Positions 41,684 to 64,000 are shown, counted from the stretch's first letter. The stretch: DNA of 64,000 nucleotides from Opitutales bacterium (GCA_965197745.1 CBDANS010000006.1:320001-384000); one strand, 5' to 3'. A program made the numbers and translations. The notes: a model not told the origin generated them from the letters alone.

Positions 41684-42028
41684 TAGCTTAAAATCGGTCA
41701 AATCTCTAATTCAAACCTAGTGGTTAAACACCTTACACCTCTACGACAATCCCACTCTAACAATCGTTCCAAGTCTGGAAGAGAGTGTCCATATTATAAA
41801 TAATTCGAGGTATTTCAATTAAAGGGAATAACCTTAGCTTTTTATGCCTATTGTCGATTTTTTGATTGTTCCCCGTGGTTACTTTATAATAAATCCGCTA
41901 TTATGGACCCTGCAACTGGCATCTCTATCTATAAATTCTAATCTTGTGTTTTTACATGCCCCTTGCTAATCCGGATCGCAGTTACGCATTGAGAAACGAC
42001 AACGGGTGGCTATTATTATAAATTAGAT

Positions 42029-43378
42029 ATGGGGAAATCGACTCAAGAGTCAGCAATTGTAACTAATCGCCATAATGATTTGTACAATACTGCGCAGCTT
42101 TATTTACCGGGAGGAGTGTCTGCGTCCGCCCGAGCGAACGAAGCTTTGGGGCACCCTCTATACATATCTCGCGGCGATGGAGCGAAAATATATGATATAA
42201 ACGGCCGTGAGTATATCGACATGTGCATGTCCCATGGGGCTTCCTTACTTGGGCACAATCATCCTAAGATAAAAGCGGCGATCTCACGTGCATTAGATCT
42301 GGGAATCATTTGTTCATACGAAACCGAGCACCATTCCGCTTTAGCAAAAAGCATCACCGAGATGGTACCCTGTGCCGAGATGGTGCGCTTTGCGGGTTCA
42401 GGCACTGAAACCATTATACATGCATTGCGACTGGCGCGTTCCGCTACGGGCCGCGAGAAGATCATTAAATTCGAAGGGCACTTCCACGGCTATTCGGATG
42501 ATCTCAATTACAGTGTCGCACCCCCCCTCGATAAAGCCGGCCCTGAGGAAAACCCTCTTCCCTATCCACAGTCAACGGGGATGGCGAAGCACCTCACAGA
42601 CAATTTGATTGTCGTTCCCTTCAACGATTTTGCAGCACTGGAAAATGCATTTTCTGAACACGGGCAAGAGGTGGCAGCACTGATCATGGAACCCATCAAC
42701 TATGACGCAGGTTGTATTGTTCCAAAGCCAGGATTTATTCAATCCTGTCGCGATCTTTGTGATCAGCACGCTGTCCTGCTCTTTTTCGACGAAGTCCTCA
42801 CAGCTTTCCGTATGTCAAACGGGGGCGCACAAAAGTATCTTAATATAACACCTGACCTGTGTGTCCTGGGTAAAGCTTTCGGTGGCGGGATGCCAATCAG
42901 CGCTATTGCCGGTAAGCGAGAAGTTATGATGCATTTTCGTCCGGTGGGAGAAAGCGAACACAGTGGCACATACCTGTCACATTTGACCACGGTTCTTGCC
43001 GCGCAGGCAGCCTTGGATATATATGCTGAACCCGACTTTTATGATAACTTAAATAGAATCGGAGATAAATTTTACACCGGGTTCCAGGAGATAATTGATC
43101 GCAGTAGTCTGCCGGCACAATTACAATATGCGGGTCCCCGTTTTGGTATATATTTTGGGGTCACACATGAAGTGATAAACTACCGTGAAGCAGCCAACCA
43201 AAACCATGAGATGCTTTTAAAATTTATCGCGGGCTGTATCAATCGAGGGGTATACTTTCATGTCTCTCCCCACCACGGATTTTCATCTGCGCACACCGAA
43301 GAAGATATCGATCGCTCATTGGAAGGAATTGAGGGTGCTATGTCCGAGGTAAAAGACGCATTCCCCAACGGAAAATAA
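42029..43378 (+). CDS. Class III PLP aminotransferase, glutamate-1-semialdehyde-aminomutase-like
   Basis: LPGGVSA, SGTE, KFEGHFHG, FDEVLT, LGKAFGGGMP (PLP lysine). Confidence 0.88.
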   Translation: MGKSTQESAIVTNRHNDLYNTAQLYLPGGVSASARANEALGHPLYISRGDGAKIYDINGREYIDMCMSHGASLLGHNHPKIKAAISRALDLGIICSYETEHHSALAKSITEMVPCAEMVRFAGSGTETIIHALRLARSATGREKIIKFEGHFHGYSDDLNYSVAPPLDKAGPEENPLPYPQSTGMAKHLTDNLIVVPFNDFAALENAFSEHGQEVAALIMEPINYDAGCIVPKPGFIQSCRDLCDQHAVLLFFDEVLTAFRMSNGGAQKYLNITPDLCVLGKAFGGGMPISAIAGKREVMMHFRPVGESEHSGTYLSHLTTVLAAQAALDIYAEPDFYDNLNRIGDKFYTGFQEIIDRSSLPAQLQYAGPRFGIYFGVTHEVINYREAANQNHEMLLKFIAGCINRGVYFHVSPHHGFSSAHTEEDIDRSLEGIEGAMSEVKDAFPNGK

Positions 43379-43397
43379 ACATATAAAAGTAAATAAT

Positions 43398-44363
43398 ATG
43401 GAAAAGGTAAATGTTCTCTTTGCGGTAAGTGGACTGGAATCATACGTTGAGCGAATACAAGCGCTCTCACCCGGGTTGTCTATTCAAGCAGTTCAGAATT
43501 TGGATGAATTGAATAATAACCTAACCGAGGTTGAAGTGCTGGTCACAGAATTTCCCGATTTCGATTTAGAAAAGGGGCCCCAATTAAAGTGGGTGCATTG
43601 GTGGGGCACCGGAATCGAGTGCTTCAGTGATCAACCTATTATGCACAGCGATGTTGTTCTCACGAATGCGAGTGGTGTATCTTCTAAGCCCATTGCCGAG
43701 TATGTGCTTAGTCAGATGGTAAGTTTATCCCGCGATTACCCACGGATGATGCTCGACCATAAAGAACATTTTTGGAACAAAGATCACTTTCTGGAATACC
43801 GGCGTCCCGAATTGAGAGACAAAACGCTGGGAGTTATCGGTTACGGCAGTATCGGGCGTGAAATTGCGCGACTCGCCCAGTGCTTTGGCATGTCAGTAAT
43901 GGCCACGCGACGCTCATCGACCAGCCGGGAGATTGAAAAAGAAGTCGAAGTATTACCAAAAAATGACCTCGACCACTTGCTCGCAGCAAGTGATTTCATC
44001 GCCTTGAGCGTTCCCCTCACATCCGAAACAGAAGGTCTTATCGGCGAGGAGGAATTCAGGAAGATGAAACCAACTGCCTATATAATTAATATCACGCGGG
44101 GAAAAGTAATCAATGATAAGGCACTGGGGAAAGCATTGCGGGAAAACTGGATTGCAGGTGCGGCATTAGACGCTTTTGCCGAAGAACCTCTGCCCTCGAG
44201 CAGTGAACTCTGGGATTTACCGAATACTTTGATCACGCCTCATATCTCTGGAGATACCGACAGGCATAACGACCGTAACGCGGATGTATTTTGCGAAAAC
44301 CTGCGGCGTTATCTTAATGGAGAAGATCGCATAAACATTGTGGACATTGCCAGGGGCTATTAG
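43398..44363 (+). CDS. D-isomer-specific 2-hydroxyacid dehydrogenase
   Basis: GVIGYGSIG, NITRG, LDAF.EEPL, ITPHISG (Arg/Glu/His triad). Confidence 0.9.
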   Translation: MEKVNVLFAVSGLESYVERIQALSPGLSIQAVQNLDELNNNLTEVEVLVTEFPDFDLEKGPQLKWVHWWGTGIECFSDQPIMHSDVVLTNASGVSSKPIAEYVLSQMVSLSRDYPRMMLDHKEHFWNKDHFLEYRRPELRDKTLGVIGYGSIGREIARLAQCFGMSVMATRRSSTSREIEKEVEVLPKNDLDHLLAASDFIALSVPLTSETEGLIGEEEFRKMKPTAYIINITRGKVINDKALGKALRENWIAGAALDAFAEEPLPSSSELWDLPNTLITPHISGDTDRHNDRNADVFCENLRRYLNGEDRINIVDIARGY

Positions 44364-44403
44364 GGATTGAGTCAGTATTTAAAATATCAAAGAATAAGAA
44401 AAG

Positions 44404-45585
44404 ATGCAGCTCATTGATTATACGCGCGCATCCGTATTGATGCAGAAAGCAGGTCTGGAATTAATCCTCGCAAATTCAATAAGCAATGTAAGCTACCTGC
44501 TCGACTACTATTGTCACTGTATCAATAATTCAAGCTGGTTGCTTGATGATGGGAGCATGTTTTACCAGTCCTTTGTCGGACTGCCTGTGGATGAAAAGCA
44601 AACACCGTTTTTCACCCCCTGGGTAGGCGAAGGGGGGTTTTTTTCTGAAAATGAACCCTGGGTTAAAGATCGTTACTTCTATGGCCGTAAAATGCCGATT
44701 CCAGGTGTGGGCATAAACAATGAAAGACAAGCTGGTGATCCAGTCGAAGCAGCAGTATCAGCGATAAAAGACCGAAACCTGGCTTCATCATGTATTGGTG
44801 TGGAGATGGCTTCCCTACCTGTAGCATCCTATAAAAGATTGTGCGACGAATTACCCAAAGCCCGCTTTGCTGATGCCGGACCGCTCCTCTCGCAACTGCG
44901 ATCAGTTAAGGCTCCTGAAGAAGTCAGGCGAATGAAAATCGCTGGCAATACTACGGAGCATGCGATAAAAACAGCATACGACTCTGTGAAGGAAGGGACG
45001 ACAGAACTGGAATTTGAACATAATTTAAAAGTCTCCCTTGCTGAGGAAGGGGCCAAGTTTGTCTGGGCTCACGTCGCCTTTGGACCCAAGGGAGCTTCAG
45101 ATATAGTGCCGCGTGATGTGGCTGCCCGGCCAGGGGAAGCATTGCGTGTCGATACGGGTGGCAGCTATGGCGGCTATATCTGTGACATGTCTCGTGTGGG
45201 AGTGTTAGGCGATCCTGATCCCGAGCTTGTGAGAGCCATGGAGGCAACCTTTGAAACTTATAAAGCCGTACGGGGAGCCGTCAAAGCGGGGGCACGGGCG
45301 GGTGATCTTCATGAATTGGGATCACGGGTTATGAAAAGTAACAGTTATGAGCTATTTTCCTTTATGGTCGGTCATGGCATTGGTCGGGATGCGCACGAAT
45401 GGCCTTTTTTAGTTAAGGGAAGCGATATAATCCTGGAGGCCGGTATGACAATCTGTGTGGAAATCCCTCTTCGCATCCAGGGTCTTGGTTCAATCAACAT
45501 CGAGGACATGGTGCATGTAACAGAAAATGGTTGTGAATCAATCACCACTTCCAGTCCTGAACTCTACCTTATCAATCAAAATTGA
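44404..45585 (+). CDS. M24 (Xaa-Pro peptidase/creatinase fold) hydrolase 1
   Basis: RSVKAPEE, RVDTG...CDMSR, GHGIG..AHEWP, VEIP, IEDMV; the D/D/H/E/E metal set is intact. Confidence 0.88.
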   Translation: MQLIDYTRASVLMQKAGLELILANSISNVSYLLDYYCHCINNSSWLLDDGSMFYQSFVGLPVDEKQTPFFTPWVGEGGFFSENEPWVKDRYFYGRKMPIPGVGINNERQAGDPVEAAVSAIKDRNLASSCIGVEMASLPVASYKRLCDELPKARFADAGPLLSQLRSVKAPEEVRRMKIAGNTTEHAIKTAYDSVKEGTTELEFEHNLKVSLAEEGAKFVWAHVAFGPKGASDIVPRDVAARPGEALRVDTGGSYGGYICDMSRVGVLGDPDPELVRAMEATFETYKAVRGAVKAGARAGDLHELGSRVMKSNSYELFSFMVGHGIGRDAHEWPFLVKGSDIILEAGMTICVEIPLRIQGLGSINIEDMVHVTENGCESITTSSPELYLINQN

Positions 45586-45648
45586 TTCCATGGTGGGGTA
45601 TCGAACTTCACCCTTGGGACGAATTGTCGATTCCTTGCAAAGAATATT

Positions 45649-46022
45649 AACCACGGATTACGCGGATTCGGCGGATAAATACGAGAATGACTACGGATTA
45701 CGCGGATAGATACTGATGTTGATTTATGGAGTGTAAGATTAACGAATAGTACCGAGGGCCAGGAGCGAAGCCCGACATCACCCATTCAACACCTAAAAGA
45801 ACATGGACAGAAAAGAAATCTGTAATGTAGAAAATAGCCTTCGCTTCACTCGCATTTGCGAGTGCTAGAACGATCCGTTCAGGTATTTACACAACAATTT
45901 TGTGTAAATACCTGAGTTGGCGTTCAGAAGCGCTACCGCGCGCAGCGAAGACGATTTTCCACATTACAGATTCCCTTTTTACCTTTTGAAATTTATCCGT
46001 GTAATCCGTGATATCCGCGGTA
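45649..46022. mobile_element. Nested palindromic, MITE/REP-like non-coding element
   Basis: Outer 9-mer-based imperfect IR (45649-45680/45991-46022), middle 26/29 IR (45817-45845/45944-45972), inner perfect 16-bp IR (45879-45894/45900-45915). Mobility is inferred. Confidence 0.65.
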
Positions 46023-46200
46023 TTATACTTTGGAGATTTCGCTGTGTTCTCGTATTGCCTTTTGCTTTGCCTGATATAGTCACGTAGCTGCGGGACGGTC
46101 AGCCCGCGCTCAAGCTATGGCCGTTCAAGACTGAAATTATCATAGTTTCTATCCAATTGGCTATTGCAAACCAGCTTCTGGAATTCGACAATTGAAAGCC

Positions 46201-47070
46201 ATGAATGATTCCAGCTGGAAACCCCTGGAAGGGAATATAGATGAAATGCTGAAGGAGAATAACAATCCCATAGGAGCGTTAGCGGCTGGGGAGATACCCG
46301 CGATTATTTTGCGCAATGCTTATCCCTCAGAAATGTGTTCACAACTTGTCGCGCGTTTCTATGAGCGGGATCTGGTCCCCGGCCTGCCAAAGCCCGGCGA
46401 ACTCATCACCGGGAAGCGTGACTTTGAACGCATAGATATCGGCACCAGTCTCTCCAATATCGGTGATGATCAAAATCATTTTTTCGCTGATGCTGAAAAG
46501 ACTACCCAACTCTATGAAACGCTCTTTGCAGGGATGCAAAATCCCATTCACCAACTATACGAAACCATCACCCGTTTATCACCGGGGAAACAGGCAGTGA
46601 CCGCCTACGAGCCTGATGGACGTCATTATGGGGCTGCAATTTTTCGTTGTCATATGCCCGACTGGGGCTATCCACCGCATATCGACTCGGTAAGTATTCG
46701 TGATGGGCGAACGAATTACGCTGTTCACCGGTTTCATACCCAATTGGGGGGTATATTACTGGTGCAAGCACCGGAAAAAAAACCAACCGGTTTTGATTCC
46801 ATCATACACCGCAGTGAATGGAATAAAAATCTGGAACTGGAACATTATAGCGCAGGGGGTATAGGCGTTCTAACAAAATCTTTTTATGAATACGCTGAAA
46901 AAAATCGGATCGAAAGTTACGGCGTGTCGCTAGCTGAAGGAGACATTTATTTTTTTAACTCCCACCGACTTCATGAGGCGCCGCGTTTTACGGGCAATCG
47001 TCCACGGATTGTCTTGGCTACCTTTTTCGGTTACACAGACGATGATCCCGAAATATTTGTCTGGTCATAA
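46201..47070 (+). CDS. Putative 2-oxoglutarate/Fe(II)-dependent oxygenase
   Basis: HID (HxD), GDIYFFNSHRLHE (distal His), RPRIV (2OG-binding Arg). Confidence 0.72.
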   Translation: MNDSSWKPLEGNIDEMLKENNNPIGALAAGEIPAIILRNAYPSEMCSQLVARFYERDLVPGLPKPGELITGKRDFERIDIGTSLSNIGDDQNHFFADAEKTTQLYETLFAGMQNPIHQLYETITRLSPGKQAVTAYEPDGRHYGAAIFRCHMPDWGYPPHIDSVSIRDGRTNYAVHRFHTQLGGILLVQAPEKKPTGFDSIIHRSEWNKNLELEHYSAGGIGVLTKSFYEYAEKNRIESYGVSLAEGDIYFFNSHRLHEAPRFTGNRPRIVLATFFGYTDDDPEIFVWS

Positions 47071-47134
47071 GGATATTAGTAAAGGGCCAAACAAGGTATT
47101 CACCATGCGTCATAATGATTAATCAAAGAAAAAG

Positions 47135-48328
47135 ATGATACTTTTCGACGAAGAAAAAGCATCATTAATGATGCAATCACAGGGTGTGGACATTATACTG
47201 GCCCACAGCCTGATCAATGGCGGCTTTCTCGCTGACCATTGGAAGCACGAAATCGTTTCAAGCTTTGGATCCTACATGACCGACGATGATGGGGTCCCCT
47301 ACCAGTTAATCGTCGGTCTGCCCGGTGACCGAAAGATAGAACCATTTATTACCTGCAGAACCGGGGGTGAAGAAGGCGACATGTTTTATACCGAGGTATG
47401 GATTGAAGATAAACGCTTTTGGGGACCCGGCACGGCGAACCGGGAATCAAATTCTCCCTTTGGACCCTATAACCAAATTTATAGTGATCCCATGGAAGCT
47501 GCCGTAGATGCCTTGCGTGACCGCAACCTTGATCGCGGGACGATCGGTATTGAAATGCGTTTCCTCGGTATAGATCCCTACCATCGTTTAAAAAGCCTTT
47601 TACCAGAAGCGACTTTTGTCGACGCAAACCCATTGCTGAATGACTTGCGTATGGTTAAAACCGAGGAAGAAGTCCGACGCATGCGCATCGCCGCCAGGGC
47701 AACAGAAAAAGCAATCGAAGCTGCATTTAAAACAATTGAGGAAGGGACAACCGGCCTGGACATGGAACGTATCGTCGGTGCCACGCACTATGAAGAAGGG
47801 GTGCGGCATGAGTGGCTGCATACTAATGTAGGCCCCAGTGGCGCGCAGGTCATCTGTCCTAATAACACATCGGTAAATCGCGGTGAAATCTTAAGGTTGG
47901 ATGTGGGCGCCAGCTACAGACATTATCAGAGTGATATATCGCGGGTCAGTGTATTAGGTGAACCCTCACCTGAGCTTCTTAAAACGCACCGTGGGATGCG
48001 CAAGGCATTGGACGCAGTGGTAGAAGCCGCGCGGCCGGGCGTTACTGCTGGTCATCTTTTTACGGTCGGAAATACTGTCGTTGAAGATGAAGGGCTTGAA
48101 AACTTTTTAACTATCGTCGGGCATGGTGTGGGGCGCGACATTCATGAAATGCCTTTCCTCAAAGAGGGTAATCCGATAATAATGGAATCAGGCATGACCT
48201 TAGCGATCGAATTGGCAACGATGATAAAACACCTGGGTTGTATCGCTCTCGAAGACGATATCGTTATTACAAAGGATGGCTGCGAAGCGTTGAGCACGAC
48301 AGGACGCGAACTTTATATAGTCGAATAA
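47135..48328 (+). CDS. M24 (Xaa-Pro peptidase/creatinase fold) hydrolase 2
   Basis: RMVKTEEE, RLDVG...SDISR, GHGVG..IHEMP, IELA, LEDDI. Confidence 0.88.
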   Translation: MILFDEEKASLMMQSQGVDIILAHSLINGGFLADHWKHEIVSSFGSYMTDDDGVPYQLIVGLPGDRKIEPFITCRTGGEEGDMFYTEVWIEDKRFWGPGTANRESNSPFGPYNQIYSDPMEAAVDALRDRNLDRGTIGIEMRFLGIDPYHRLKSLLPEATFVDANPLLNDLRMVKTEEEVRRMRIAARATEKAIEAAFKTIEEGTTGLDMERIVGATHYEEGVRHEWLHTNVGPSGAQVICPNNTSVNRGEILRLDVGASYRHYQSDISRVSVLGEPSPELLKTHRGMRKALDAVVEAARPGVTAGHLFTVGNTVVEDEGLENFLTIVGHGVGRDIHEMPFLKEGNPIIMESGMTLAIELATMIKHLGCIALEDDIVITKDGCEALSTTGRELYIVE

Positions 48329-48386
48329 ATTCTTTAAAAACCAAATAAAAGTTAGCGCGACAGTACCCAGCTTTACGGTAATTAAG

Positions 48387-50327
48387 TTGGATCATAAAAA
48401 GCTTATCTTTTTATCATCCATAATTCTCAGCATAATCCTATCTGGCTGTTTAGCGCCTGATCCCAATCTGGAACCCTTGTCCAAAGCAGAGGAAGGTGAG
48501 CAAACTTCTAACCGCGAAGTAAAAACAACCGCGCCCACCAGCATCGATCCGATGATCCTTGCCAATCGCGCGTTTCGTGAGGCACCGATGCTCACCGCGA
48601 AAGTTAAAGCCGGCGGATTACCTCCGGTCAGTGAACGACTGCCTGATAACCCACTTGTCATCGTCCCGCTCGAAGAAATTGGCACTTACGGCGGCACCAT
48701 TCGCCGCGCGCTCACCGGTGATGTTATCCAGACGCAAGGACCGGTCAAAGCCTTCAATGAAAATCTGATGGGCTATGAGCGCCCCTACCCTCCAAAAAGT
48801 ATTCAACTTAACCTGGCAGAAAGCTTTGAACTCTCCGACGACGGAAAAACTGCAATCGCGAGAATACGAAAAGGGGTCAAGTGGTCGGATGGTGTCCCCT
48901 TCACCGTCGACGACATTCTCTTCTGGTATTATGACATGGAATTTAACGATAACGCGCGACGGCCTACACGTCCCATTCCACCCGCTCACTGGCGAGTCGA
49001 TGGCAAGCCTATTAAATTTGAAAAGATCGATGATCTTACCCTTAAGATATCCTCCCAAAAACCGTTAGGGAGGGTTCGCCAAGCCCTCAGCCACGAAGAG
49101 ATTGCTTACCCCAAACACATTCTCGCCAAACATCACCCCAAATATAACCCGGAAGCCAACTACAAAGACTTTCGTGATCTCACGACCGACTCGCAACTAA
49201 TCATGGAACCGGACTTGCCCCGACTCTCGGCCTGGGTTCCCGTGGAATGGATTCGTGGACAGCGGATTGTTTATGAACGCAATCCTTATTACTGGAAAGT
49301 TGATAGCGCGGGAAACCAGCTGCCCTATGCAGACCGGTACACTTTTGATGTCATTCAGGATCCCAAAGTCATCCTTCTGAAATTCATCAATAGTGAATTT
49401 GACTTGTTTGGAAGGTATTTTCAAATGGACATGTATCCCACACTTAAATCGGAAGAGATAAAAGGGAGATTTAAACTTCGCGTATCCGGTCCTATAGGCG
49501 CCCAGGCTTACTACCTCAACTGGGATGCGCACAATCCCATGCTTCGTGAGGCATTCAGGAATAAGAATGTGCGAATGGGGCTTTCTCACGCTATCAACAG
49601 GGAAGAAATTAAAGAAATTATTTATTTTGGTCTCCTTCTACCTTCCGGTTATTCATTCGGACCCCTTGATCCTTATTTTTCCGAGGAAGTCTATAAAAAA
49701 TATTCTGAATATAATCCAAAATTGGCACGCGAACTACTGGACAAGGAGGGTTATCGTGATACTGACGGTGATGGATTTCGCGAGCTGAAAGATGGATCCC
49801 GTTTTGAGCTAAATATCGATGTGACTTCTTCGCAAAAGATTGCCGTCGATGTCTGCGAGCTGGTTACGGAACATTGGAAAGCAATCGGAATTAAGGCTAA
49901 CTTAAATCCTGCTCTTAGGGACATCATTATACCCCGCCGTTTGAACGGCGAATTTGACATTCACACCTGGGTTCAAGAGGGACACACCGACATTCTCGGT
50001 CGCATGTTTGACTATGGAATAACGGGCTCAATTTTCCCCTTCTGGCACCGAAATGCCCAACAAGAAGGACCGGAATGGTTACACGAGGTTACGCGTTATA
50101 TCAATTTAGCTATCACCACCGTCGATGCAGCCAAGCTTAGCGAGTATATGAACCACATTCGCGACCTGCATACGGATAACATTCCCGTTATCGTTGTCGG
50201 CTCGGCTTATTTTGTGTGGGGTGCTAACTCCCGCCTGGGTAATGTGCCTTGGACAAGCACCAATGCTTATGTTTACCGGGGCTGGGGTCGCTCACTTTAT
50301 AACGAGCAGATTTACATCAATCAATAA
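48387..50327 (+). CDS. ABC transporter family 5 (Opp/Dpp/Nik-type) substrate-binding lipoprotein 1
   Basis: Lipobox ILSGC, LPPVSERLP.NP, KWSDGVPFTVDD, ERNPYYWKVD..GNQLPY, DTDGDGFRE. Confidence 0.92.
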   Translation: MDHKKLIFLSSIILSIILSGCLAPDPNLEPLSKAEEGEQTSNREVKTTAPTSIDPMILANRAFREAPMLTAKVKAGGLPPVSERLPDNPLVIVPLEEIGTYGGTIRRALTGDVIQTQGPVKAFNENLMGYERPYPPKSIQLNLAESFELSDDGKTAIARIRKGVKWSDGVPFTVDDILFWYYDMEFNDNARRPTRPIPPAHWRVDGKPIKFEKIDDLTLKISSQKPLGRVRQALSHEEIAYPKHILAKHHPKYNPEANYKDFRDLTTDSQLIMEPDLPRLSAWVPVEWIRGQRIVYERNPYYWKVDSAGNQLPYADRYTFDVIQDPKVILLKFINSEFDLFGRYFQMDMYPTLKSEEIKGRFKLRVSGPIGAQAYYLNWDAHNPMLREAFRNKNVRMGLSHAINREEIKEIIYFGLLLPSGYSFGPLDPYFSEEVYKKYSEYNPKLARELLDKEGYRDTDGDGFRELKDGSRFELNIDVTSSQKIAVDVCELVTEHWKAIGIKANLNPALRDIIIPRRLNGEFDIHTWVQEGHTDILGRMFDYGITGSIFPFWHRNAQQEGPEWLHEVTRYINLAITTVDAAKLSEYMNHIRDLHTDNIPVIVVGSAYFVWGANSRLGNVPWTSTNAYVYRGWGRSLYNEQIYINQ

Positions 50328-50345
50328 ACACTATTTCGGACGAGA

Positions 50346-52292
50346 ATGGATACTATGTATCGACGAATTTTACCCGCGATCCTATCTTTGATTCTCGGCC
50401 TTATCCTGTTTAGTTGTTTAGCACCTGACCCCGATCTTGAACCCCTTACCGAAACCGATAATAAAGAAATTATCACGCAACGTGAAATAAAAACCCGGGC
50501 TCCATTAAAAATTGACCCCGCAATACTCACCGCCCGCAGCTTTAATGAGGCACCGATATTGGCCGTGAAAGTTAAAGCCGGTGAACTGCCACCGGTCAGT
50601 GAACGACTACCGGATAACCCGCTGGTCGCTGTTCCATTAGAAGAAATTGGTCAATACGGGGGCACTATTCGCCGGGCTCTCACCAGTGACATCGCTCAAA
50701 CACAAGGCCCAGTCAAGGCCTTCAATGATAACCTTATGGGTTATGAACGCCCCTACCCTCCAAAAAGTATTCAGCTCAATCTCGCTGATTACTTCGCATT
50801 ATCCGACGATGGAAAAACAGCCATTGTAAATATTCGAAAAGGGGTCAAGTGGTCGGACGGCGTTCCCTTCACTGTCGACGATATTCTCTTCTGGTATTAC
50901 GACATGGCCTTTAACGACAGCGCGCGCAGCACGCCACCGATACCACCACCCTATTGGCAAGTGGATGGTAAACCGATTAAATTAGAAAAAATCGATGATC
51001 GCACCCTGAAGATTTCCTCTCCCAAACCCCTGGGGCGTGTCCGCAGGGCGCTCAGTCACGAAGACATTGCCTACCCCAAACACATCCTCGCCAGGCACCA
51101 CCCCAAATACAATCCCGATGCCAATTACAAGGACTTTCGCGATCTCACGACCAGCGCCCAGCTGGTCATGCGTCCGGGTCTGCCCCGACTCTCCGCATGG
51201 GTCCCCGTGGAATGGGTGCCTGGTCAACGCATCGTCTACGAGCGAAACCCCTACTACTGGAAGATTGACAGTGAAGGAAACCAGCTACCCTACGCTGACA
51301 GGTACACCTTTGAAATCATTCAGGACCCAAAAGTTCTGCTCCTGAATTTTATCAATAGTGAACTCGATCTTTTCGGAAGGTATTTTCAGATGGATATGTA
51401 TCCCACGCTTAGATCGGAAGAACAAAAAGGGCGTTTTAAGCTTCGTATCTCGGGACCCATTTCCGGCCCCGCTTTCTATCTGAATTGGGACGCGCACAAT
51501 CCCGCGCTGCGGGAAGCATTTCAGAACATAAATGTGCGCATCGCTCTATCCCATGCTATCAACCGGGAAGAAATCAAGGAGATCATATATTTTGGATTAT
51601 TCAACCCGTCCGGTTATTCGTTTGGCCCGCCCAATCCTTATTACTCAAAGGAAGCCCACATGAAATATTCCGAATACGATCCTGAAAAATCGCGCGCCTT
51701 ACTGGAAACGTCAGGGTATCGTGATACCGATGGTGACGGGTTTCGTGAATTCAAAGATGGAACCCGATTTGAGATGAACATCAACGTAACTTCAACCCAA
51801 AAAATTGGTGTCGATGTTTGCGAACTTGTTTCTGAACATTGGGGAAAAATTGGCATTAAGGCTAACCTAAATCCGATGCTCAGAGAACTGATCTCGGCTC
51901 GCTGGTTAAGCGGCGAATTTGATATCCATCACTGGGGACAATCTGGGCATACCGATCCTCTCGGCCAAATGTTTATGTGGGCAATTTCGAGCCCAATGAC
52001 CCCCTATTGGCATCGTAATGCGCATAAAGAAGGCCCTGATTGGTTACACGAAGCAACCCGTAATGTCGAACGAGTACTCACCACTGTCGATCCGGTAAAA
52101 GTCCGCGAGTATATGATCCGCCTTCGCGACCTGCATACCGATAATATTCCGGTTATCGTTACTGGCTCGACTTACTTTGTGTGGGGCGCGCACACACGCC
52201 TCGGCAATGTCCCCTGGACAAGCACACACGCCTATGTCTATCGGGGCTGGGGTCGCTCTCTCTACAACGAACAGATTTATATTAAACAATAA
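50346..52292 (+). CDS. ABC transporter family 5 substrate-binding lipoprotein 2 (tandem paralog)
   Basis: Lipobox LFSC; colinear with and highly similar to the preceding gene. Confidence 0.92.
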   Translation: MDTMYRRILPAILSLILGLILFSCLAPDPDLEPLTETDNKEIITQREIKTRAPLKIDPAILTARSFNEAPILAVKVKAGELPPVSERLPDNPLVAVPLEEIGQYGGTIRRALTSDIAQTQGPVKAFNDNLMGYERPYPPKSIQLNLADYFALSDDGKTAIVNIRKGVKWSDGVPFTVDDILFWYYDMAFNDSARSTPPIPPPYWQVDGKPIKLEKIDDRTLKISSPKPLGRVRRALSHEDIAYPKHILARHHPKYNPDANYKDFRDLTTSAQLVMRPGLPRLSAWVPVEWVPGQRIVYERNPYYWKIDSEGNQLPYADRYTFEIIQDPKVLLLNFINSELDLFGRYFQMDMYPTLRSEEQKGRFKLRISGPISGPAFYLNWDAHNPALREAFQNINVRIALSHAINREEIKEIIYFGLFNPSGYSFGPPNPYYSKEAHMKYSEYDPEKSRALLETSGYRDTDGDGFREFKDGTRFEMNINVTSTQKIGVDVCELVSEHWGKIGIKANLNPMLRELISARWLSGEFDIHHWGQSGHTDPLGQMFMWAISSPMTPYWHRNAHKEGPDWLHEATRNVERVLTTVDPVKVREYMIRLRDLHTDNIPVIVTGSTYFVWGAHTRLGNVPWTSTHAYVYRGWGRSLYNEQIYIKQ

Positions 52293-52417
52293 ATTCCCCC
52301 TTTTGACCCAAATAAAAAATTCGATCTGCTATTTATTGTCTTATCTATTCTTATGGGTACAAGTTTTATAGATAGGGGATGCCTCAACTTACTTTCGAAA
52401 TCGAATAAGCACTTACG

Positions 52418-53416
52418 ATGATAAATTATATTCTGCGGCGCATCCTGAATATGATCCCGACTCTGATTCTTATCTCGATTTTCAGTTTTGTCGTTATTCA
52501 GGCTCCACCTGGAGATATGCTCACCTCAAAGCTGGCTCAATGGGCCGAGCAAGGTGAAATGGGATCGGGAGGTGCAGTAGAACAGATGGAAGCCCTGCGC
52601 GAACGCTATGGGTTGAATGATCCGATATTCGTTCAATATTTAAGATGGATAGGTAATATCATATTTCACTTGGATTTCGGGGAGTCATTCACTTATGAAT
52701 TGGATGTTATAATACTGCTGAAGGATCGGCTGGGACTTACCCTGATCCTTACCCTCACGACGCTTTTCTTCACCTGGCTGATCGCCATCCCGATAGGAAT
52801 TTTTTCCGCAACCCGGCCCTACACTTTCGGCGATTACAGTTTTACTTTTCTCGGTTTCATCGGTCTCGCAACGCCAAGTTTTCTCTTCGCGCTCGTCATC
52901 ATGTTTATACAAATCGTCGTCTTCGACACCGAGTCTGTAGGCGGTCTGCTTTCACCGGATTTTATTGGAGCTCCCTGGTCGATCGCTAAGATCGGCGACC
53001 TGCTTGCTCACATTTGGGTCCCCATCATTGTCATTGGAGCTGCTGGAACCGCAACCGTTATCCGCATCATGAGAGGGAATTTAATGGACACGCTTAATCA
53101 GCAACACATTCAAACCGGGCGGGCCAAGGGATTAAAAGAGCGCGTGGTAATTTATAAATACGCGGTGCGCATAGCTATCAACCCGCTGATCAGTAGAGTG
53201 GGAATTGAAATGCCCAATCTTTTATCGGGTACCGTGGTCACCGGTATTGTCCTGGGGCTGCCCACCGCGGGTCCCTTATTCCTCACCGCATTAATCTCTC
53301 AGGATATGCACCTCGCCGGGGCCTTCCTTCTTCTCTCGGCCACTTTTCTTCTCATCGGCAACCTTATGGCAGATATTGTCCTGGCCTGGCTTGACCCAAG
53401 GATTCGCTATGATTGA
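52418..53416 (+). CDS. ABC permease, OppB/DppB-like
   Basis: YILRRIL, APPGD, YGLNDP..VQY, DFGESF, GRAKGL.ER loop, LDPRIRY. Confidence 0.93.
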   Translation: MINYILRRILNMIPTLILISIFSFVVIQAPPGDMLTSKLAQWAEQGEMGSGGAVEQMEALRERYGLNDPIFVQYLRWIGNIIFHLDFGESFTYELDVIILLKDRLGLTLILTLTTLFFTWLIAIPIGIFSATRPYTFGDYSFTFLGFIGLATPSFLFALVIMFIQIVVFDTESVGGLLSPDFIGAPWSIAKIGDLLAHIWVPIIVIGAAGTATVIRIMRGNLMDTLNQQHIQTGRAKGLKERVVIYKYAVRIAINPLISRVGIEMPNLLSGTVVTGIVLGLPTAGPLFLTALISQDMHLAGAFLLLSATFLLIGNLMADIVLAWLDPRIRYD

Positions 53417-54566
53417 AGGTTCAGACAAAAATCACACACAGCCGTTACCCTCTCCTGTTTCTGAAGTAGTGGATAAAACGGGATCTACGGTCACCTATTC
53501 TCATCGCAAACTGATTTGGAGACGGTTCAAAAAGCATAAAATCGGAATTGCCGGTGGGTATGTCGTCCTCTTTCTCAGCCTCTGCTTTCTCTTCGCCGAA
53601 TTCTTGAGTCCCCATAATATCAGCAGACGCTATTTTAATTACACCTATTTACCGCCACAGAGCATTCATTTCTTTTCTTCGGATGGTTTTCAGATCCGCC
53701 CCTTTGTCTATGGGATCAAAAGTAGTTTAGAGAGCCAGACGGGCATTAAAAAATACACCGAAGATGCCACAAAAAAATATCCCCTTCATTTTTTAGTGCG
53801 TGGGGACACCTATTCTTTTTATGGATTGTTTAAATCCGATCTTCACCTGTTTGGAACCGGTAAGGGAAATCCACTCTTCCTCATGGGTACAGACCGATTC
53901 GGTCGAGACCTCTTTTCACGGCTACTGGTCGGGGGAAGGGTATCATTTACGGTGGGCCTGCTCGCAGTTTTTATCAGCATCGCACTTGGATCCAGTTTAG
54001 GTGTGATCTCTGGATATTATGGAGGAAGGATTGACAATATTATTCAGCGTATCATTGAACTCATATACGCCTTTCCACAGATTCCCATTCTTATGGCGCT
54101 TAGCGCTATATTGCCACCGGAATGGCCCTCCTATCTAACCTTCATGGGAATTGTTACTGTCCTTTCCTTCATTGGCTGGGGCAGTTTAGCCCGGGAAATA
54201 CGTGGCAAATCACTCTCCATCCGTGATTCCGATTTTGTGCTCGCCGCGCGTGTGTCAGGGGCTAAAGACCGACGCATTATTTTTAATCACCTTCTACCTT
54301 CGATGTTCAGTCACATAATTGTTATCTCCACCCTGGCCATTCCCGGTTTCATTCTCGCGGAGAGCACGCTGAGTTTTCTTGGCCTGGGTATTAAAGCCCC
54401 GATGACCAGCTGGGGCCTGCTTCTCTCAGAGGCAATGAATCTTCATTCCCTCAGTCTTTATCCGTGGCTCCTTGCCCCGGGAGCATGCATCATTATCGCT
54501 GTGCTTGCTTTCAACTTTCTCGGCGATGGGCTCCGCGACGCAACTGCTCCGTTCAGCGATAGTTAA
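53409..54566 (+). CDS. ABC permease, OppC/DppC-like
   Basis: MGTDRFGRDLFSRL..G.RVS, DFVLAARVSGA, ESTLSFLGLG, FNFLGDGLRD. ATG 53409 overlaps the upstream stop. Confidence 0.93.
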   Translation: MIEGSDKNHTQPLPSPVSEVVDKTGSTVTYSHRKLIWRRFKKHKIGIAGGYVVLFLSLCFLFAEFLSPHNISRRYFNYTYLPPQSIHFFSSDGFQIRPFVYGIKSSLESQTGIKKYTEDATKKYPLHFLVRGDTYSFYGLFKSDLHLFGTGKGNPLFLMGTDRFGRDLFSRLLVGGRVSFTVGLLAVFISIALGSSLGVISGYYGGRIDNIIQRIIELIYAFPQIPILMALSAILPPEWPSYLTFMGIVTVLSFIGWGSLAREIRGKSLSIRDSDFVLAARVSGAKDRRIIFNHLLPSMFSHIIVISTLAIPGFILAESTLSFLGLGIKAPMTSWGLLLSEAMNLHSLSLYPWLLAPGACIIIAVLAFNFLGDGLRDATAPFSDS

Positions 54567-54600
54567 GATTATTTATAAGTGATTACCCGATAATTTATCA

Positions 54601-55617
54601 ATGGCGCATACAGATAACAGTTCATCACCGCTACTTAAGATTCAAAACCTGAAGACTTATTTCTACACCGATGACGGTATTGTTAAAGCCGTAGACGGTG
54701 TCTCGCTCACGATTGGAAGCCGGCAGACACTCGGTTTAGTCGGGGAAAGTGGTTGTGGAAAAAGCATAACCGCGTTTTCCATCATACAGCTTGTATCAAG
54801 CCCTCCCGGTAAAATTGAGGACGGGGAAATTCTTCTTTATGAGAACGGCAATCAATCGACACCGATTGACCTTATCCAACTCGATCCCAAAGGAGAGGCC
54901 ATAAGGGATATTCGTGGAAATGACATCGCGATGATCTTTCAGGAGCCAATGACCTCGCTTAGCCCTGTCCACACCGTAGGCAATCAAATAGGTGAAGCCA
55001 TTATTCTACATCAGAAAGTGGACAAAAATGAAGCTCGAGAGAGGACGATTGAAGTTCTTCGGAAAGTGCGCCTCCCCGACCCGGAAAATCTCGTGGATTC
55101 TTATCCCCACGAATTAAGTGGAGGAATGCGGCAACGCGCCATGATTGCGATGGCCCTTTCCTGTAATCCCAGGCTCCTCATTGCGGACGAACCTACGACT
55201 GCACTCGACGTCACGGTCCAAGCCCAAATTTTAGATTTAATGCAGCAGTTGAAAGAGGAAAGCGAGATGTCGATCATGCTCATTACTCATGATCTTGGCG
55301 TCGTCGCGAGAATGGCGGATTATGTCGCGGTGATGTACCTTGGGAAAATTGTCGAATACGGTGATGTCAGGACCATTCTGAAAAACCCAAAACATCCTTA
55401 CACCCGGGGATTATTAAAATCGATACCACAAATTGGACAAAAGGAGCGGCTGGTTCCAATCGAAGGGACCGTTCCCGATCCTTATGAATCTATTGTCGGT
55501 TGTTCATTTGCAGCCCGTTGCCCCTACGCGATGGAGAAATGTCGTCAAGTCCCCCCTTTAGAGGAGATTAAACCGGGTCATTCAGTAAGCTGTTGGTTAG
55601 AAAATAAGGATGAATAA
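54601..55617 (+). CDS. ABC ATP-binding protein, OppD/DppD-like
   Basis: [25 protein letters not shown]-terminal GCSFAARC...C. Confidence 0.95.
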
Positions 55618-56647
55618 AATGGCCAAGAGTGAATCCTCAAAAATTGAGGATCTTTTACTTGAAGTAACTGATCTTAAAACTTATTTCCCTGTCAAAAAGG
55701 GTATTTGGCGACGAATTGTCGGTCAGGTAAAAGCGGTAGATGGCGTCAGCTTGACTCTGGGAAAAGGAGAAACTCTCGGACTGGTGGGAGAAAGCGGGTG
55801 CGGTAAAACAACACTGGGACGCTCTCTCATCCGGCTGATAGAACCAACAGAGGGAAAAATAATTTTTCATCATGATGAAGCCATAGTCGACCTGCGAAAA
55901 CTTGACAAGGAGGCGATGCGAAATTTCCGGCGCCATCTTCAATATATATTTCAGGACCCCTTTTCATCGCTTAACCCGCGCATGACGGTATTCGATATCG
56001 TAGCTGAACCCCTGATTATAAACAGGGTAGCTTCGGGGTCGGAGCTTGATGACAGAGTGGAACAGCTTTTATTGCATGTTGGATTGAATGCTGAACATCA
56101 ACGGCGTTATCCCCATGCGTTCAGCGGTGGTCAGCGACAGCGCATTGGCATTGCTCGAGCCCTCGCTCTCACTCCAAGCCTCATCATCGCAGACGAACCC
56201 GTCTCCGCGCTGGATGTCTCGATCCAGGCACAGGTTATTAACTTAATGGACGATCTACAGGATGAGTTTAATCTTACCTACCTTTTCGTCGCCCATGATC
56301 TGAGCGTTGTCGAACACATCAGTGACCGCATCGCCGTTATGTATCTGGGTGAAATAGTTGAAATTGCCCCTGCCGATCGCCTTTATCAAAGGCCTCTGCA
56401 CCCTTATACCTCGACCCTCTTATCAGCAGTGCCTTCGGTCGATCCCGATCAACAACCTGCCCGTCAGTCCGTCGAAGGCGACGTCCCCAATCCCGCTAAC
56501 GCCCCCAGTGGTTGTAAATTTCACCCCCGCTGTCCTTATGCCCAGGATATCTGCCGTATTGAGAATCCCTCATTGCTTGAGATCGAATCTGATCATAAGG
56601 CAAGCTGCCACTTTGCCGGCGAGCTCAATTTTGAAGAAGAAGGCTAA
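55610..56647 (+). CDS. ABC ATP-binding protein, OppF/DppF-like
   Basis: [33 protein letters not shown]. Confidence 0.95.
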
Positions 56648-56671: not shown

Positions 56672-59268
56672 CTATTTTCTATTGAGAGAATAAATAGTAA
56701 GTCGATCCAGGGATTTACTTTTCACCGGAATTATAAAACTGGCAATATACCCCAGGCAAAAACATAGCATGAATCCAATGGCCGAATAGAGGAAAATATT
56801 TACCTCGGTGTATGTCTTGATTAAGAAAAGAATAATTGCACTACCAATCGCGCCTACGAGCGCACCGGGACCATTAGACCGCCGCGTAAATATGCCCAAA
56901 GCAAAAAGACCTCCGAGACCACTTCCGATGAGACCAAGCATGGAAACGAAGAAAAGGGTCACTGATTTTATGTCCATGGTGGCAAACATTATCGCGACAA
57001 TAGTGGCAAAAGCTCCAACCGCTAAGGTAACTAAACGAGCCAGATTCAAGGATCTGTTTTCCGATTTTGATGGGATTAATCGCTGGTAAAAATCCGTTAC
57101 TACCGCGGTGGCAATCGAGTTCATACCACTATCTAGAGTGGACATTGAGACGGCAAAGATTGCTGCAATTACAAGTCCCGCTAAACCAATAGGAATTTTC
57201 TGGGTAATGAACAGCGGATAAATGGCATCATTTTGCATACCCAGGTCGAGAGCGGCAGGGTTACTTTTATAGTAAACATAAAGAGCGGAACCCACGGCGT
57301 ATAAGATAAAGGTTATGGGAAAGACAAGAATGGCATTCATCCATAAACTTTTAGCCGCGGTTTCTTCATCAGTAGTCGTAAGGTAACGTTGGACTATTGC
57401 CTGGTCGGAGGAATAAGCGACAAGCGCTCCGAACGTTGAACCGATTAACATTACCCAGGTATTTCTCATGTCTGAAATGTCACCATCAAGATAAAGCATG
57501 CGAAATTTATCGTCAGCGATACTGGTTTTGATGAAACCGCTGATCCCGCCTTCAATATAAAAGGGGATGATGATCAGGGTAATGACCGCACCAAGAATGA
57601 GAACTACAGCTTGTATAACATCGGTCCATATCACGGCTTCAATACCTCCCAAAACGGTGTAAAAGGTGCTCAACACTCCCATCGAGAGAATGCATACATA
57701 TATATTTAAACCGGTTATGGTGGAAAGTGCGATAGACGGTAAATACAGCACCATGCTGGTTCGCACTAATTGATACAGGATAAACTGCGCGCTACCGTAT
57801 AAACGCACGAAATAATTAAACCGGTATTCGAGGTACTCATAAGCGGTGGTCAAATTCAATCGGCGAAAAAACGGCAGATAGAAAAAAATAATAAATATAG
57901 GGATGAGGGCAAAACAGAGCTTTTGCGGGTACATAAACCAGTCCACGGAATAAACAAGCGCAGGTTGAGAAAAAAAAGTATCCCCACTGAATATCGTGGC
58001 CACAATGCTGAATCCAGCGGCCCACCAGGGGATACGATGTCCGGCCAGAAAGTAGTCTTCCGTTTTCTTCTCTCGTCTGACAAAATAGAAGCCCATGTAA
58101 ACGAGCGCTATCATGTAGAGACCTAAAAAAGCGTAATTTACAAAACCGAAGTCGGCGTTAGCCCCGGCCTCGTGGATCATAACCTGAATCGCACCCGTAC
58201 TTTTTCCAGGACTTATTTCTCCGTTAGGGATGACCACGCCGCCATTCCATGAAACCGCGTTTGTCATAAGTACACCTTGCGGCATTTCCCCTTCTTTTAT
58301 CCACGTGTCAGTAATGGTATGGTAAACTAACAGGTCTTTAGAGAAGGCTGAATCCAATTGATTTTCGAATGATCCGCCGAAGATGATGAGGTGGGATTGG
58401 CCAAATGCAATGTGGGGTGCAGCAGATACAGGTTGTGGCGCATCTTTTATCGGAACCCATTGTTTTTTAAAGGGATAATAGCGGTAGCCGTCCCTCACCG
58501 CAATCATCTCAATTTCGCCATTGTCTTTGAACTTCAGTTCATCGCCTCCGATGAGATAAAAATAATGATCTCGACTGATGTTTTGCCTTACCGCGACCGC
58601 ATTTTTTCGGGCTGAACCGGGCCACGGTTCCAGTTTTTTCCATCCGGCCTCAAGATCTTTTAAGTCCAAGACCCAAAAATTCTTCAACAACGCTAAAGGA
58701 TTCGTCACATCCTGACCTCCAACAAGGTAGAGGGTATCGCCAATAATGTCAGCAGCAGTATAGGCCACAGGCCCGGGCAAAGATGGTAACGGTTCCTGTT
58801 CAATTTTTTGTGTCGATGAATTCCATCTAAGACGAAGAACATCAGTATAACTTCTCTCTGCATCGCGTCCTCCAATGACAATCAAGCTGTCACCGGTACT
58901 AACCGATGCACCGTAAGCAAGGGGTCGGGGCAACTTGAAACCGGTTAACCAAGCTTCATTTTCATTACTCGTCTTCGGCAGCACATAGATAGCATCATGC
59001 CAGCTGTGCCCGTTCCCCTCTCCCAGGGAACTTTCAGAAAAATCCACTCCACCTGCGACGATTAATGTGCCATTACTCACACCGGCATAGGTTCCAGATA
59101 GACCAGCTGGAGCAGGTAACTCGGTTAGTCTTTCCCAGCGAATGACCTCTTGCTGTGGGGTACTACTTAAACTACACCCCACTAATCCGCTTAAAGATAA
59201 AACAATAAAAATATACTTCAGCAGATTAATATTTAATACCCGTTAAGTTTGCGCGGATTGTTCGACAT
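56672..59268 (-). CDS. Kelch-repeat (NanM-like) / sodium:solute symporter fusion; 5' end has a frame break
   Basis: Kelch blades (LIVAGG, LIVIGG, LYLVGG, YLIGG, IIFGG with downstream W), then SSS core (DYFLAG..IPWW, TAYEYLEYRF, GGIEAVIWTD, DQAIVQRYL, MSTLDSGMNS). The RBS-backed ATG at 59268 is out of frame with the main ORF (track start 59182). Confidence 0.85.
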
Positions 59269-63539: not shown

Positions 63540-63565
63540 TTTTTTTACCTTATTTTGCCATGAAC

Positions 63566-64000
63566 TTAGCTGTCATTTTTTACTAAGCCATTTTTTCTAA
63601 GAGACATAGGCAAGGGGAAAGTGACTCCCTCGGGTTCGCTTTCCATGTCAATTATATTAGAAACACCAAATTGCTGTAGTTTATCGAGAACTTCCTGAAC
63701 AAGCACTTCCGGCGCCGAGGCACCCGCGGTCAAACCCACACGAGGGCTTTTATTAAACCATGATTTATCCAGATCCTCAGCATCTTGTACTAGATAGGCT
63801 TCGAGCCCATTTTTCTCACCGACTTCTCGCAAACGAGTGGAATTGGAACTGTTTCTCGCGCCGACGACTATAAGTAAATCGATATCGTCCATCATTTGTT
63901 TTACTGCCGTCTGCCGATTCTGAGTTGCGTAACAGATATCATCTTTACGCGGACCGCCGATAGCGGGAAATCGCTTTCTCAAAGCATCAATTATCTGTTT
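63566..64000 (-). CDS. ispH: 4-hydroxy-3-methylbut-2-enyl diphosphate reductase (5'-truncated by window edge)
   Basis: DDICYATQNRQ, VGARNSSNS, TAGASAPE; frame is open to position 64000. Confidence 0.95.
   Translation of the reverse strand, partial: KQIIDALRKRFPAIGGPRKDDICYATQNRQTAVKQMMDDIDLLIVVGARNSSNSTRLREVGEKNGLEAYLVQDAEDLDKSWFNKSPRVGLTAGASAPEVLVQEVLDKLQQFGVSNIIDMESEPEGVTFPLPMSLRKNGLVKNDS

Follow-up and report, generated by a model that had tools for sequence, protein, structure and literature searches.

A candidate uptake and catabolism operon with a predicted WelO5-family hydroxylase in a marine-type Opitutales bacterium

Which compound is imported and broken down by a gene cluster that joins a complete oligopeptide-type importer to five enzymes, one of them a relative of the halogenase WelO5? 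The question is raised by eleven co-oriented open reading frames (ORFs) at positions 42029-56647 (+ strand) of a 64,000-nucleotide stretch of DNA, referred to here as the window (G000:C6:320001-384000), from the genome (G000) of a marine-type Opitutales bacterium. The reading favored here, with a probability of roughly 55% judged from sequence comparison, is that the genes form a single operon whose products take up and catabolise a small modified peptide or N-aminoacyl conjugate. Each of the genes belongs to a known superfamily, and the locus is of a known kind, a substrate-specific operon for import by an ATP-binding cassette (ABC) transporter followed by catabolism; the uncharacterised element is the clade of the oxygenase.

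In the proposed route, two paralogous substrate-binding lipoproteins (up to four elsewhere) would capture variants of the compound and pass them on to an ABC importer of the Opp/Dpp type. A cytoplasmic WelO5-family enzyme with an HxD iron site could then hydroxylate an unactivated carbon, either in the conjugate or in a residue released from it, by analogy with SadA. Two binuclear-metal M24 hydrolases, whose aminopeptidase fold calls for a free amino group, would cut N-substituted amide bonds, one perhaps acting on the hydroxylated and the other on the unmodified form. A HemL-like aminotransferase would take the amino group off the released amine or amino acid, and a glyoxylate-reductase-like dehydrogenase would interconvert the resulting oxo and hydroxy acids, leading into central metabolism. 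The substrate is most likely a small, carboxylate-bearing nitrogenous conjugate with a scissile bond that resembles Xaa-Pro or another N-substituted amide. We infer the order of the steps, the direction of the redox reaction and the chemical class of the substrate; catabolism is favored over biosynthesis because binding proteins and a full importer are present.

Gene set and operon architecture

The cluster and its two intergenic regions of interest are as follows; PLP is pyridoxal phosphate, 2OG is 2-oxoglutarate, and SBP is substrate-binding protein.

41702-42028, + strand: presumed promoter region of 328 bp, bounded by the divergent DUF3179 gene on one side and the aminotransferase gene on the other
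42029-43378, + strand: AT3, HemL-like class III (PLP) aminotransferase, 449 residues (PF00202, E 4e-62)
43398-44363, + strand: D-isomer-specific 2-hydroxyacid dehydrogenase, 321 residues (PF02826, 2-Hacid_dh_C, E 9e-56)
44404-45585, + strand: M24a, creatinase/prolidase-fold metallohydrolase, 393 residues (Creatinase_N and Peptidase_M24)
45586-46200, no strand: enlarged intergenic gap with nested inverted-repeat insertions at about 45650-46021
46201-47070, + strand: predicted WelO5-family Fe(II)/2OG hydroxylase (PF22814, 76 bits, E 4.8e-21)
47135-48328, + strand: M24b, creatinase/prolidase-fold metallohydrolase, 397 residues (Creatinase_N and Peptidase_M24)
48387-50327, + strand: SBP1, family-5 substrate-binding lipoprotein, 646 residues (PF00496, SBP_bac_5; lipobox LSGC)
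50346-52292, + strand: SBP2, paralogous family-5 lipoprotein, 648 residues (SBP_bac_5; about 77% identical to SBP1)
52418-53416, + strand: OppB/DppB-type permease (BPD_transp_1 and BPD_transp_1_N)
53376-54566, + strand: OppC/DppC-type permease (OppC_N and BPD_transp_1); the start may be ATG 53409
54601-55617, + strand: OppD-type ATPase (ABC_tran and oligo_HPY)
55610-56647, + strand: OppF/DppF-type ATPase (ABC_tran and oligo_HPY)

The ORF listing, with Pfam and NCBIfam scans, bears out what a first-pass annotation of this DNA had claimed, namely eleven co-oriented genes of these families and a complete Opp/Dpp-type core. Family-5 binding proteins (SBP_bac_5 E-values 4e-60 and 6e-64) are accompanied by permeases with the OppB N-terminus and OppC_N, and by two oligo_HPY ATPases; the two M24 proteins have Pfam E-values of 6e-38 and 3e-39. 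The same annotation had noted the lack of a regulator, and the Pfam scan finds no regulator domain in the cluster or in the flanking ORFs of at least 110 residues tested on either side.

Intergenic spacings, in gene order, are 19, 40, 615, 64, 58, 18, 125, -41, 34 and -8 bp. The eleven genes are best treated as one operon, ancestrally compact, because the wide gap between M24a and the oxygenase gene consists of nested repeat insertions and the same junction measures only 106 bp in a sister genome, G402. The gap, about 606-615 bp in the window, is made of nested inverted repeats (I1-I5). Aligning the three genomes gives junction lengths of 106 bp for G402, 360 bp for a second sister genome (G401) and 606 bp for the window; G402 represents the empty site, G401 carries one element, and the window carries a second element inserted into the first. 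The outer element is like a miniature inverted-repeat transposable element (MITE), with 31-nt terminal inverted repeats, and the palindromic element nested inside has 42-nt arms and a perfect 16-nt hairpin (45879-45915). A second copy of the inner element, 73% identical, lies elsewhere in the genome at C6:1355976-1356296. The final 75 or so nucleotides 5' of the oxygenase start are almost identical across the window, G401 and G402.

The presumed promoter region contains two sigma-70-like consensus matches, at 41862-41890 and 41989-42016; matches across the whole region are not above those in shuffled sequence. The promoter and terminator scan counted 17 promoter-like sites (23.8 expected) and 20 terminator-like sites (15.2 expected), and neither count is informative. 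No riboswitch or other noncoding RNA was found by Rfam (E<=1) in 41600-46300, which covers both intergenic regions.

Enzymes and binding proteins

The oxygenase belongs to PF22814, scoring 76 bits against a cut-off of 27, and is about 20% identical to WelO5 structures. An AlphaFold (AF2) model built from 21 homologues has a mean predicted local distance difference test score (pLDDT) of 89.7, and in Foldseek this model superposes on WelO5 (5iqt) with an E-value of 4e-18 and a template-modelling (TM) score of 0.76. The iron site reads H163-I-D165, and none of the 21 aligned homologues departs from H163-x-D165, H261 or R272; the protein thus has the HxD...H facial triad and the arginine for the 2OG C5 carboxylate that mark generic Fe(II)/2OG hydroxylases. 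In WelO5 the residue aligned with D165 is number 166, a glycine in the wild type and an aspartate in the 5iqu variant. Since the iron site is HxD, with aspartate where WelO5 has glycine, the prediction is that the enzyme, though related to the halogenases, is of the hydroxylase type and not itself a halogenase. A WelO5-type halogenase, for which the chloride site would read HxG or HxA, was considered and rejected on account of Asp165.

The family is small: among 1.84 billion representatives a profile search returned 884 proteins at E<=1e-3, 313 at <=1e-10 and 88 at <=1e-30. The iron site was surveyed in the best 150 of the 884, of which 109 cover the first motif; 91 of these have HxD, 15 HxN, and one each HxS, HxP and a gap, and HxG or HxA occurs in none of the 109. 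The complete HxD..H..R pattern is present in 54 full-length representatives among the same 150. HxN in place of HxD, in 15 of the 109, is a ligand set for which we have no explanation.

The next distinct fold match of the modeled oxygenase after WelO5 is SadA (PDB 3w20; TMq 0.56), an enzyme that hydroxylates N-substituted L-amino acids (PMC3665795). By title and abstract, the papers found that mention the WelO5 family, its homologues or PF22814 concern halogenases or halogenated metabolites, and in the literature searched no title or abstract points to a paper on an HxD WelO5-like hydroxylase. The ORF lister starts the gene at TTG 46192; the start is probably ATG 46201, as had been assumed at the outset, because homologues begin MND....

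AT3 scores 387 bits on the HemL model TIGR00713 (cut-off 527.3) and 368.4 bits on NF041362, the model for the guanitoxin transaminase GntE (cut-off 525). AT3 is, by these scores, a HemL paralogue. The possibility that it is the housekeeping HemL was rejected, given its sub-cut-off score and a genuine HemL (589.6 bits) on contig C7 of the same genome. Lys282 aligns with the PLP lysine of GSAM, and Arg35 with the arginine of the GGVxSPVR motif, which in GSAM binds the substrate carboxylate. A 7-residue insertion falls in a loop that corresponds to residues about 150-180 of GSAM, which we take to be its gating loop. The dehydrogenase has both the NAD-binding domain (PF02826, 188.5 bits) and the catalytic domain (PF00389, 23.8 bits, just below the cut-off of 24.6); its closest solved structures are archaeal glyoxylate reductases, PGDH and McyI, and it reaches no NCBIfam equivalog cut-off.

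M24a and M24b are 43% identical, and for both the best solved relatives are archaeal and bacterial Xaa-Pro dipeptidases; for M24b the best is the Pyrococcus furiosus enzyme (P. furiosus Xaa-Pro dipeptidase, 1pv9, E 3e-34). The metal ligands are kept in M24a (D250, D261, H324, E353, E367) and in M24b (D256, D267, H330, E359, E373), where they align with the conserved D, D, H, E and E of 1pv9. Creatinase is not known to have the M24 metal ligands; a creatinase-type amidinohydrolase was set aside, since both proteins keep all of them. On the PepQ model NF040821 (cut-off 630) the pair score 95.7 and 125.5 bits, and on the DoeA/EutD models TIGR02993 and NF038259 they score 72-84 bits against cut-offs of 613 and 575, lower than on PepQ. 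In the whole cluster, only OppF reaches an NCBIfam equivalog cut-off, and that marginally (NF008453, 408.7 bits against 408); OppB scores 235 bits on the Opp4B model, below the cut-off.

Both binding proteins carry lipoboxes, LSGC (Cys21) in SBP1 and LFSC (Cys24) in SBP2. As peptide binders they fall far below equivalog level (DppA 37-45 bits against 1005, OppA 25-30 against 947). Their best matches among solved structures are an unliganded Thermotoga maritima protein (T. maritima 5ipw, 255 bits), SPH1118 (211 bits) and the alpha-galactoside-binding AgpA (128 bits); chitin-oligosaccharide and peptide binders score at most 86 bits, and Escherichia coli (E. coli) OppA and DppA are not among the matches. 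For SBP1 the best liganded solved relatives are SPH1118 (E 4e-61) and AgpA (E 5e-36). SPH1118 is described as a family-5 protein that binds pectin oligosaccharides (PMC9314435).

The number of binding proteins varies. The genome of the window has SBP1, SBP2 and a third, orphan copy 88% identical to SBP2 (C6:1172203-1174077; L083:9201-11153), and G402 has four in tandem. The orphan may feed the same permease as SBP1 and SBP2; its neighbors, a xylose-isomerase-like TIM-barrel gene (AP_endonuc_2), an Ig-like protein and an SSF symporter, give no functional clue. About 20 family-5 paralogues at roughly 30% identity are found in the genome. The varying copy number suggests active selection on uptake of this class of compound.

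Occurrence of the gene set

Relatives were sampled as 401 genomes across the phylum for the oxygenase and 401 genomes of the order for M24b and AT3. At E<=1e-10 the oxygenase is found in one genome of the phylum-wide sample, that of the window, and in 6 genomes among 61 relatives, with orthologues in G401 (81%) and G402 (95%). M24b (E<=1e-60) and AT3 (E<=1e-95) are each found in four genomes of the order: the window's, G401, G402, and a further one for each, G491 for M24b (53%) and G507 for AT3 (44%). G491 and G507 hold the only orthologue-level matches of these 401-genome samples outside the family here called f1, and neither has the rest of the set. A scan of genome contigs with one protein returned the sister genome only.

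G401 and G402 carry the whole cluster in the gene order of the window. The arrangement is not chance, because this order is kept in the two sister genomes at 80-95% amino-acid identity; the flanks are syntenic as well, so that conserved order there alone shows relatedness and not selection. Both have a twelfth gene directly upstream of AT3 (56 bp away in G401, 85 bp in G402) that is absent from the window. In G401 it encodes a SiaT-like Na+/solute symporter of 528 residues (L001:4427-6013; best solved relative 5nv9); in G402 it lies at L096:19025->20000 and runs off the stretch examined. The fourth genome of the family, G403, with a completeness of 82%, has nothing closer to the oxygenase than a paralogue at 37% identity.

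A metagenome contig (L003:1-11553) has the oxygenase (83%) and M24b (89%) as its only cluster genes. The block of binding-protein and Opp genes (8.3 kb) is missing exactly from the end of M24b to the end of OppF, the sequence upstream of the oxygenase is not M24a, and short repeats related to C7:1462542-1464643 flank the missing block on both sides. This state could reflect a deletion, a rearrangement or an assembly chimera; the retained pair argues for a tight pairing of hydroxylase and hydrolase.

More distant homologues were collected by a profile-based metagenome scan that kept 80 loci, of which 79 were examined (L004-L082; 39-57% oxygenase identity; median length 5.9 kb). At least 2 kb of flanking sequence is available on at least one side in 49 of them and on both sides in 26. 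The full gene set occurs in none of the 79. Among the genomes that hold oxygenase homologues P0006-P0013 (55-57% identity), three carry the label Planctomycetota, Planctomycetes or Phycisphaeraceae. An AT3 homologue adjoins the oxygenase in six of the 79 loci, which fall into two lineages 35-39% identical to each other. In five peat contigs (L012, L013, L020, L024 and L026) the oxygenase shares its neighborhood with an M81 peptidase, a full-length AT3 homologue (44%) and an SDR protein; in L012 and L020 an aldose 1-epimerase and a sugar-type (Sugar_tr) transporter of the major facilitator superfamily (MFS) come next, and in L020 an MFS transporter also precedes the block. The marine contig L011 has a Liv-type ABC system, an alanine-racemase-like protein, the oxygenase, a HemL-like aminotransferase and a DoeA-like M24 protein (184 bits), and its short relatives L014 and L015 have the same upstream genes.

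A quick IQ-TREE phylogeny of 86 rows places the window's family, the L011 group, L004 and L005/L006 in one clade (SH-like approximate likelihood-ratio test, SH-aLRT, 99) and the peat group in the other large clade, with long branches flagged. Since the aminotransferase and the oxygenase are neighbors in two unrelated lineages, AT3 in the left half of the cluster is tied to the oxygenase in the right half independently of close-relative synteny. The recurring unit is a predicted WelO5-clade oxygenase with a HemL-like aminotransferase, a metallo-amidohydrolase and a dehydrogenase, accompanied by three different uptake systems.

The first-pass annotation had proposed co-occurrence of the homologues in other genomes as a check on the cluster, and the outcome is divided. 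The full set recurs in three genomes of one family, but oxygenase homologues at 40-57% identity mostly have other neighbors; the close relative L003 keeps oxygenase and M24b, but the rest of the set is gone.

Single-gene homologues have neighborhoods of their own. In G507 an M81 peptidase again stands immediately before the 44% AT3 homologue, with RidA, AKR, lactonase and sugar-type ABC genes nearby; a 258-residue ORF after this pair was examined as a possible WelO5 relative and rejected (hhalign probability 0.3). In G491 the 53% M24b homologue stands beside DAO-family, MR/MLE and DHDPS-family genes and a second M24 gene, which presumably resembles a proline or hydroxyproline catabolic context.

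The flanks of the cluster in the window are unrelated to it. Upstream are genes for FtsK, FloA/NfeD, MR/MLE, a metallo-beta-lactamase (MBL)-fold protein, a split family-1 SBP, DUF1761 and DUF3179; downstream are a NanM-SSF fusion, MlaA/MlaC, GT2, a radical-SAM DUF3463 protein and LytB. The family-1 SBP gene (37932-39161, - strand) is split in two ORFs and is probably a pseudogene; of the SBP_bac_1 profile, 38691-39161 matches the N-terminal portion and 37932-38675 the C-terminal one. At 56672-59182 (- strand) a NanM-like Kelch mutarotase is fused to a Na+/solute symporter (836 residues); tblastn finds 14 further paralogues of this fusion in the genome at 40-57% identity, an unusual expansion. 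The radical-SAM protein with DUF3463 (62475-63982, - strand) adjoins LytB/IspH, a pairing that we take to resemble the hopanoid side-chain (HpnH) context.

Substrate, rival explanations and known systems

The first-pass annotation had proposed a route of uptake, hydrolysis, oxidation, deamination and redox conversion. This is the most economical reading of the tight spacing, the 106-bp junction in G402 and the recurrence in other phyla; the part that fares less well is generality, the complete set being found only in the three genomes of one family. Its further claim that the combination is not a described pathway agrees with the titles and abstracts of the literature searched, among which no characterised pathway matches one-to-one.

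Several observations weigh against a route for a modified peptide or N-aminoacyl conjugate. The complete set occurs in just three of the four genomes of Opitutales family f1 (G000, G401 and G402), and most oxygenase homologues have neighbors other than the window's set, among them PhyH dioxygenases, MR/MLE and GFO/IDH/MocA proteins, a sulfatase, a beta-lactamase-fold hydrolase and housekeeping genes. Both M24 proteins are prolidase-like, and "prolidase" is a fold-level statement only, because all of the enzymes score below every NCBIfam equivalog cut-off. By score, the binding proteins are far closer to sugar-binding members of family 5 than to those with peptide ligands, and the SiaT-like symporter upstream in G401 hints at an acidic sugar. 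The enzymes that would process the remaining carbon skeleton are not among the cluster genes.

Some of these points would be explained by a glycan-derived conjugate, such as an amino sugar, an aminoacyl-amino sugar, or a uronic or nonulosonic acid with an amide-linked amino acid, the main rival reading, which we regard as possible but unlikely. The lipoproteins would bind the sugar, the M24 enzymes would remove the aminoacyl group, the oxygenase would hydroxylate or demethylate the sugar, and the aminotransferase and dehydrogenase would convert an amino sugar by way of a keto sugar. Besides the nearest liganded structures of the binding proteins (SPH1118, AgpA and chitin-oligosaccharide-binding proteins) and the extra gene upstream of AT3 in G401 and G402, SiaT-like in the former, this fits the aldose 1-epimerase and Sugar_tr transporter that follow the peat module and the sulfatase that follows oxygenase homologues of 55% identity. 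Verrucomicrobial paralogues of the oxygenase lie among SDR, GFO/IDH/MocA, MR/MLE, HpcH-aldolase and Amidohydro_2 genes typical of sugar-acid routes, and the host genome holds 14 NanM-SSF fusions beyond that of the window together with its roughly 20 family-5 binding proteins. The cluster, however, includes no glycoside hydrolase, kinase, isomerase or deacetylase; both hydrolases have the aminopeptidase fold with intact metal sites, AT3 keeps the arginine aligned with the carboxylate-binding arginine of GSAM, and the L011 relative pairs its oxygenase with a Liv-type (amino-acid-type) ABC system and a racemase. It is improbable that the cluster is instead a juxtaposition of unrelated units, with a general oligopeptide importer and peptidase beside an aminotransferase/dehydrogenase/peptidase trio. 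The 606-bp gap with its terminator-like hairpins, the oxygenase-M24b pair of L003 that has neither transporter nor left half, the rarity with which distant homologues keep the set, and the syntenic sister-genome flanks that make conservation there uninformative would all suit such a view. It is opposed by the 106-bp junction of G402, by the aminotransferase and oxygenase being neighbors in two unrelated lineages, and by an enzyme block that stays fixed while the number of binding proteins varies.

A cyclic amidine or guanidine osmolyte resembling ectoine, with ring opening by a DoeA-type M24 enzyme, a second hydrolase, a 2,4-diaminobutyrate (DABA)-type aminotransferase and EctD-like hydroxylation, is distinctly improbable. 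Both M24 proteins do match DoeA models, if weakly, the M24 protein of the L011 cluster is DoeA-like, and AT3 is a class III enzyme that scores 368 bits on the model for GntE, whose substrate is a cyclic-guanidine aldehyde. Their DoeA scores nevertheless lie far under the cut-offs and under the PepQ scores, no equivalent of DoeB or DoeC is in the cluster, and the oxygenase is not of the EctD/PhyH type; known ectoine importers are family-3 SBP, TRAP or BCCT systems, and the importer here is Opp-type. That the cluster makes a modified amino acid or small natural product is highly improbable: secondary metabolism is the source of all three named relatives (WelO5, GntE and McyI), but two binding proteins and a complete importer are present, the Pfam scan of the cluster finds no nonribosomal peptide synthetase (NRPS), polyketide synthase (PKS), ligase, methyltransferase or exporter, and the HxD site excludes halogenation.

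The cluster may be one version of a wider module, a suggestion that we offer tentatively and with considerable doubt. Such a widespread, undescribed module would combine an HxD WelO5-clade hydroxylase acting on a small polar amino compound with a HemL-like aminotransferase, an M24 or M81 metallo-amidohydrolase and an NAD(P) dehydrogenase, served across phyla by Opp-type ABC, MFS or Liv-type ABC uptake, and its substrate would be a class of dissolved organic nitrogen from the sea or from soil for which no degradation route is known; aminoacyl-sugar conjugates and peptides containing beta-amino or other unusual residues would be examples. This would give hydroxylase-type relatives of WelO5 their first physiological role and would point to the way in which Verrucomicrobia, among other heterotrophs, exploit a nitrogen-containing compound still unnamed. 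The significance grows if the module is widespread and the substrate makes up a sizeable pool of dissolved organic nitrogen; if the operon is instead a specialised locus for peptide use, the finding is an ordinary one.

The cluster shares parts with several known systems. Like WelO5 and AmbO5, the carrier-protein-independent halogenases of hapalindole-type alkaloids, its oxygenase has the PF22814 fold, both histidine ligands and the 2OG-binding arginine; it differs in its low identity (about 20%), in having Asp165 where WelO5 has the halogenase glycine, and in its context, an importer operon of a heterotroph rather than an alkaloid cluster. SadA of Burkholderia ambifaria, which works together with a desuccinylase, has a similar fold in the model comparison and serves as a working model for how a hydroxylase and an amide hydrolase might act as a pair; it is only 17-18% identical and belongs to another Pfam family, and the window's cluster has no N-succinyl-type enzymes. 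Ectoine catabolism (DoeA/EutD and DoeD) likewise uses an M24-fold hydrolase and a class III aminotransferase on a small nitrogenous solute; the window differs in lacking DoeB/DoeC, in DoeA scores of 72-84 bits and in its transporter class. SPH1118 (pectin) and AgpA (alpha-galactosides), the best liganded relatives of SBP1, can be expected to share only about 30% identity with it. With Opp/Dpp importers and PepQ/PepP peptidases the cluster has in common the five-component architecture and an M24 fold with all metal ligands; its binding proteins reach no OppA or DppA equivalog, its M24 proteins fall far under the PepQ cut-off, and it adds an oxygenase, an aminotransferase and a dehydrogenase that are foreign to general peptide use.

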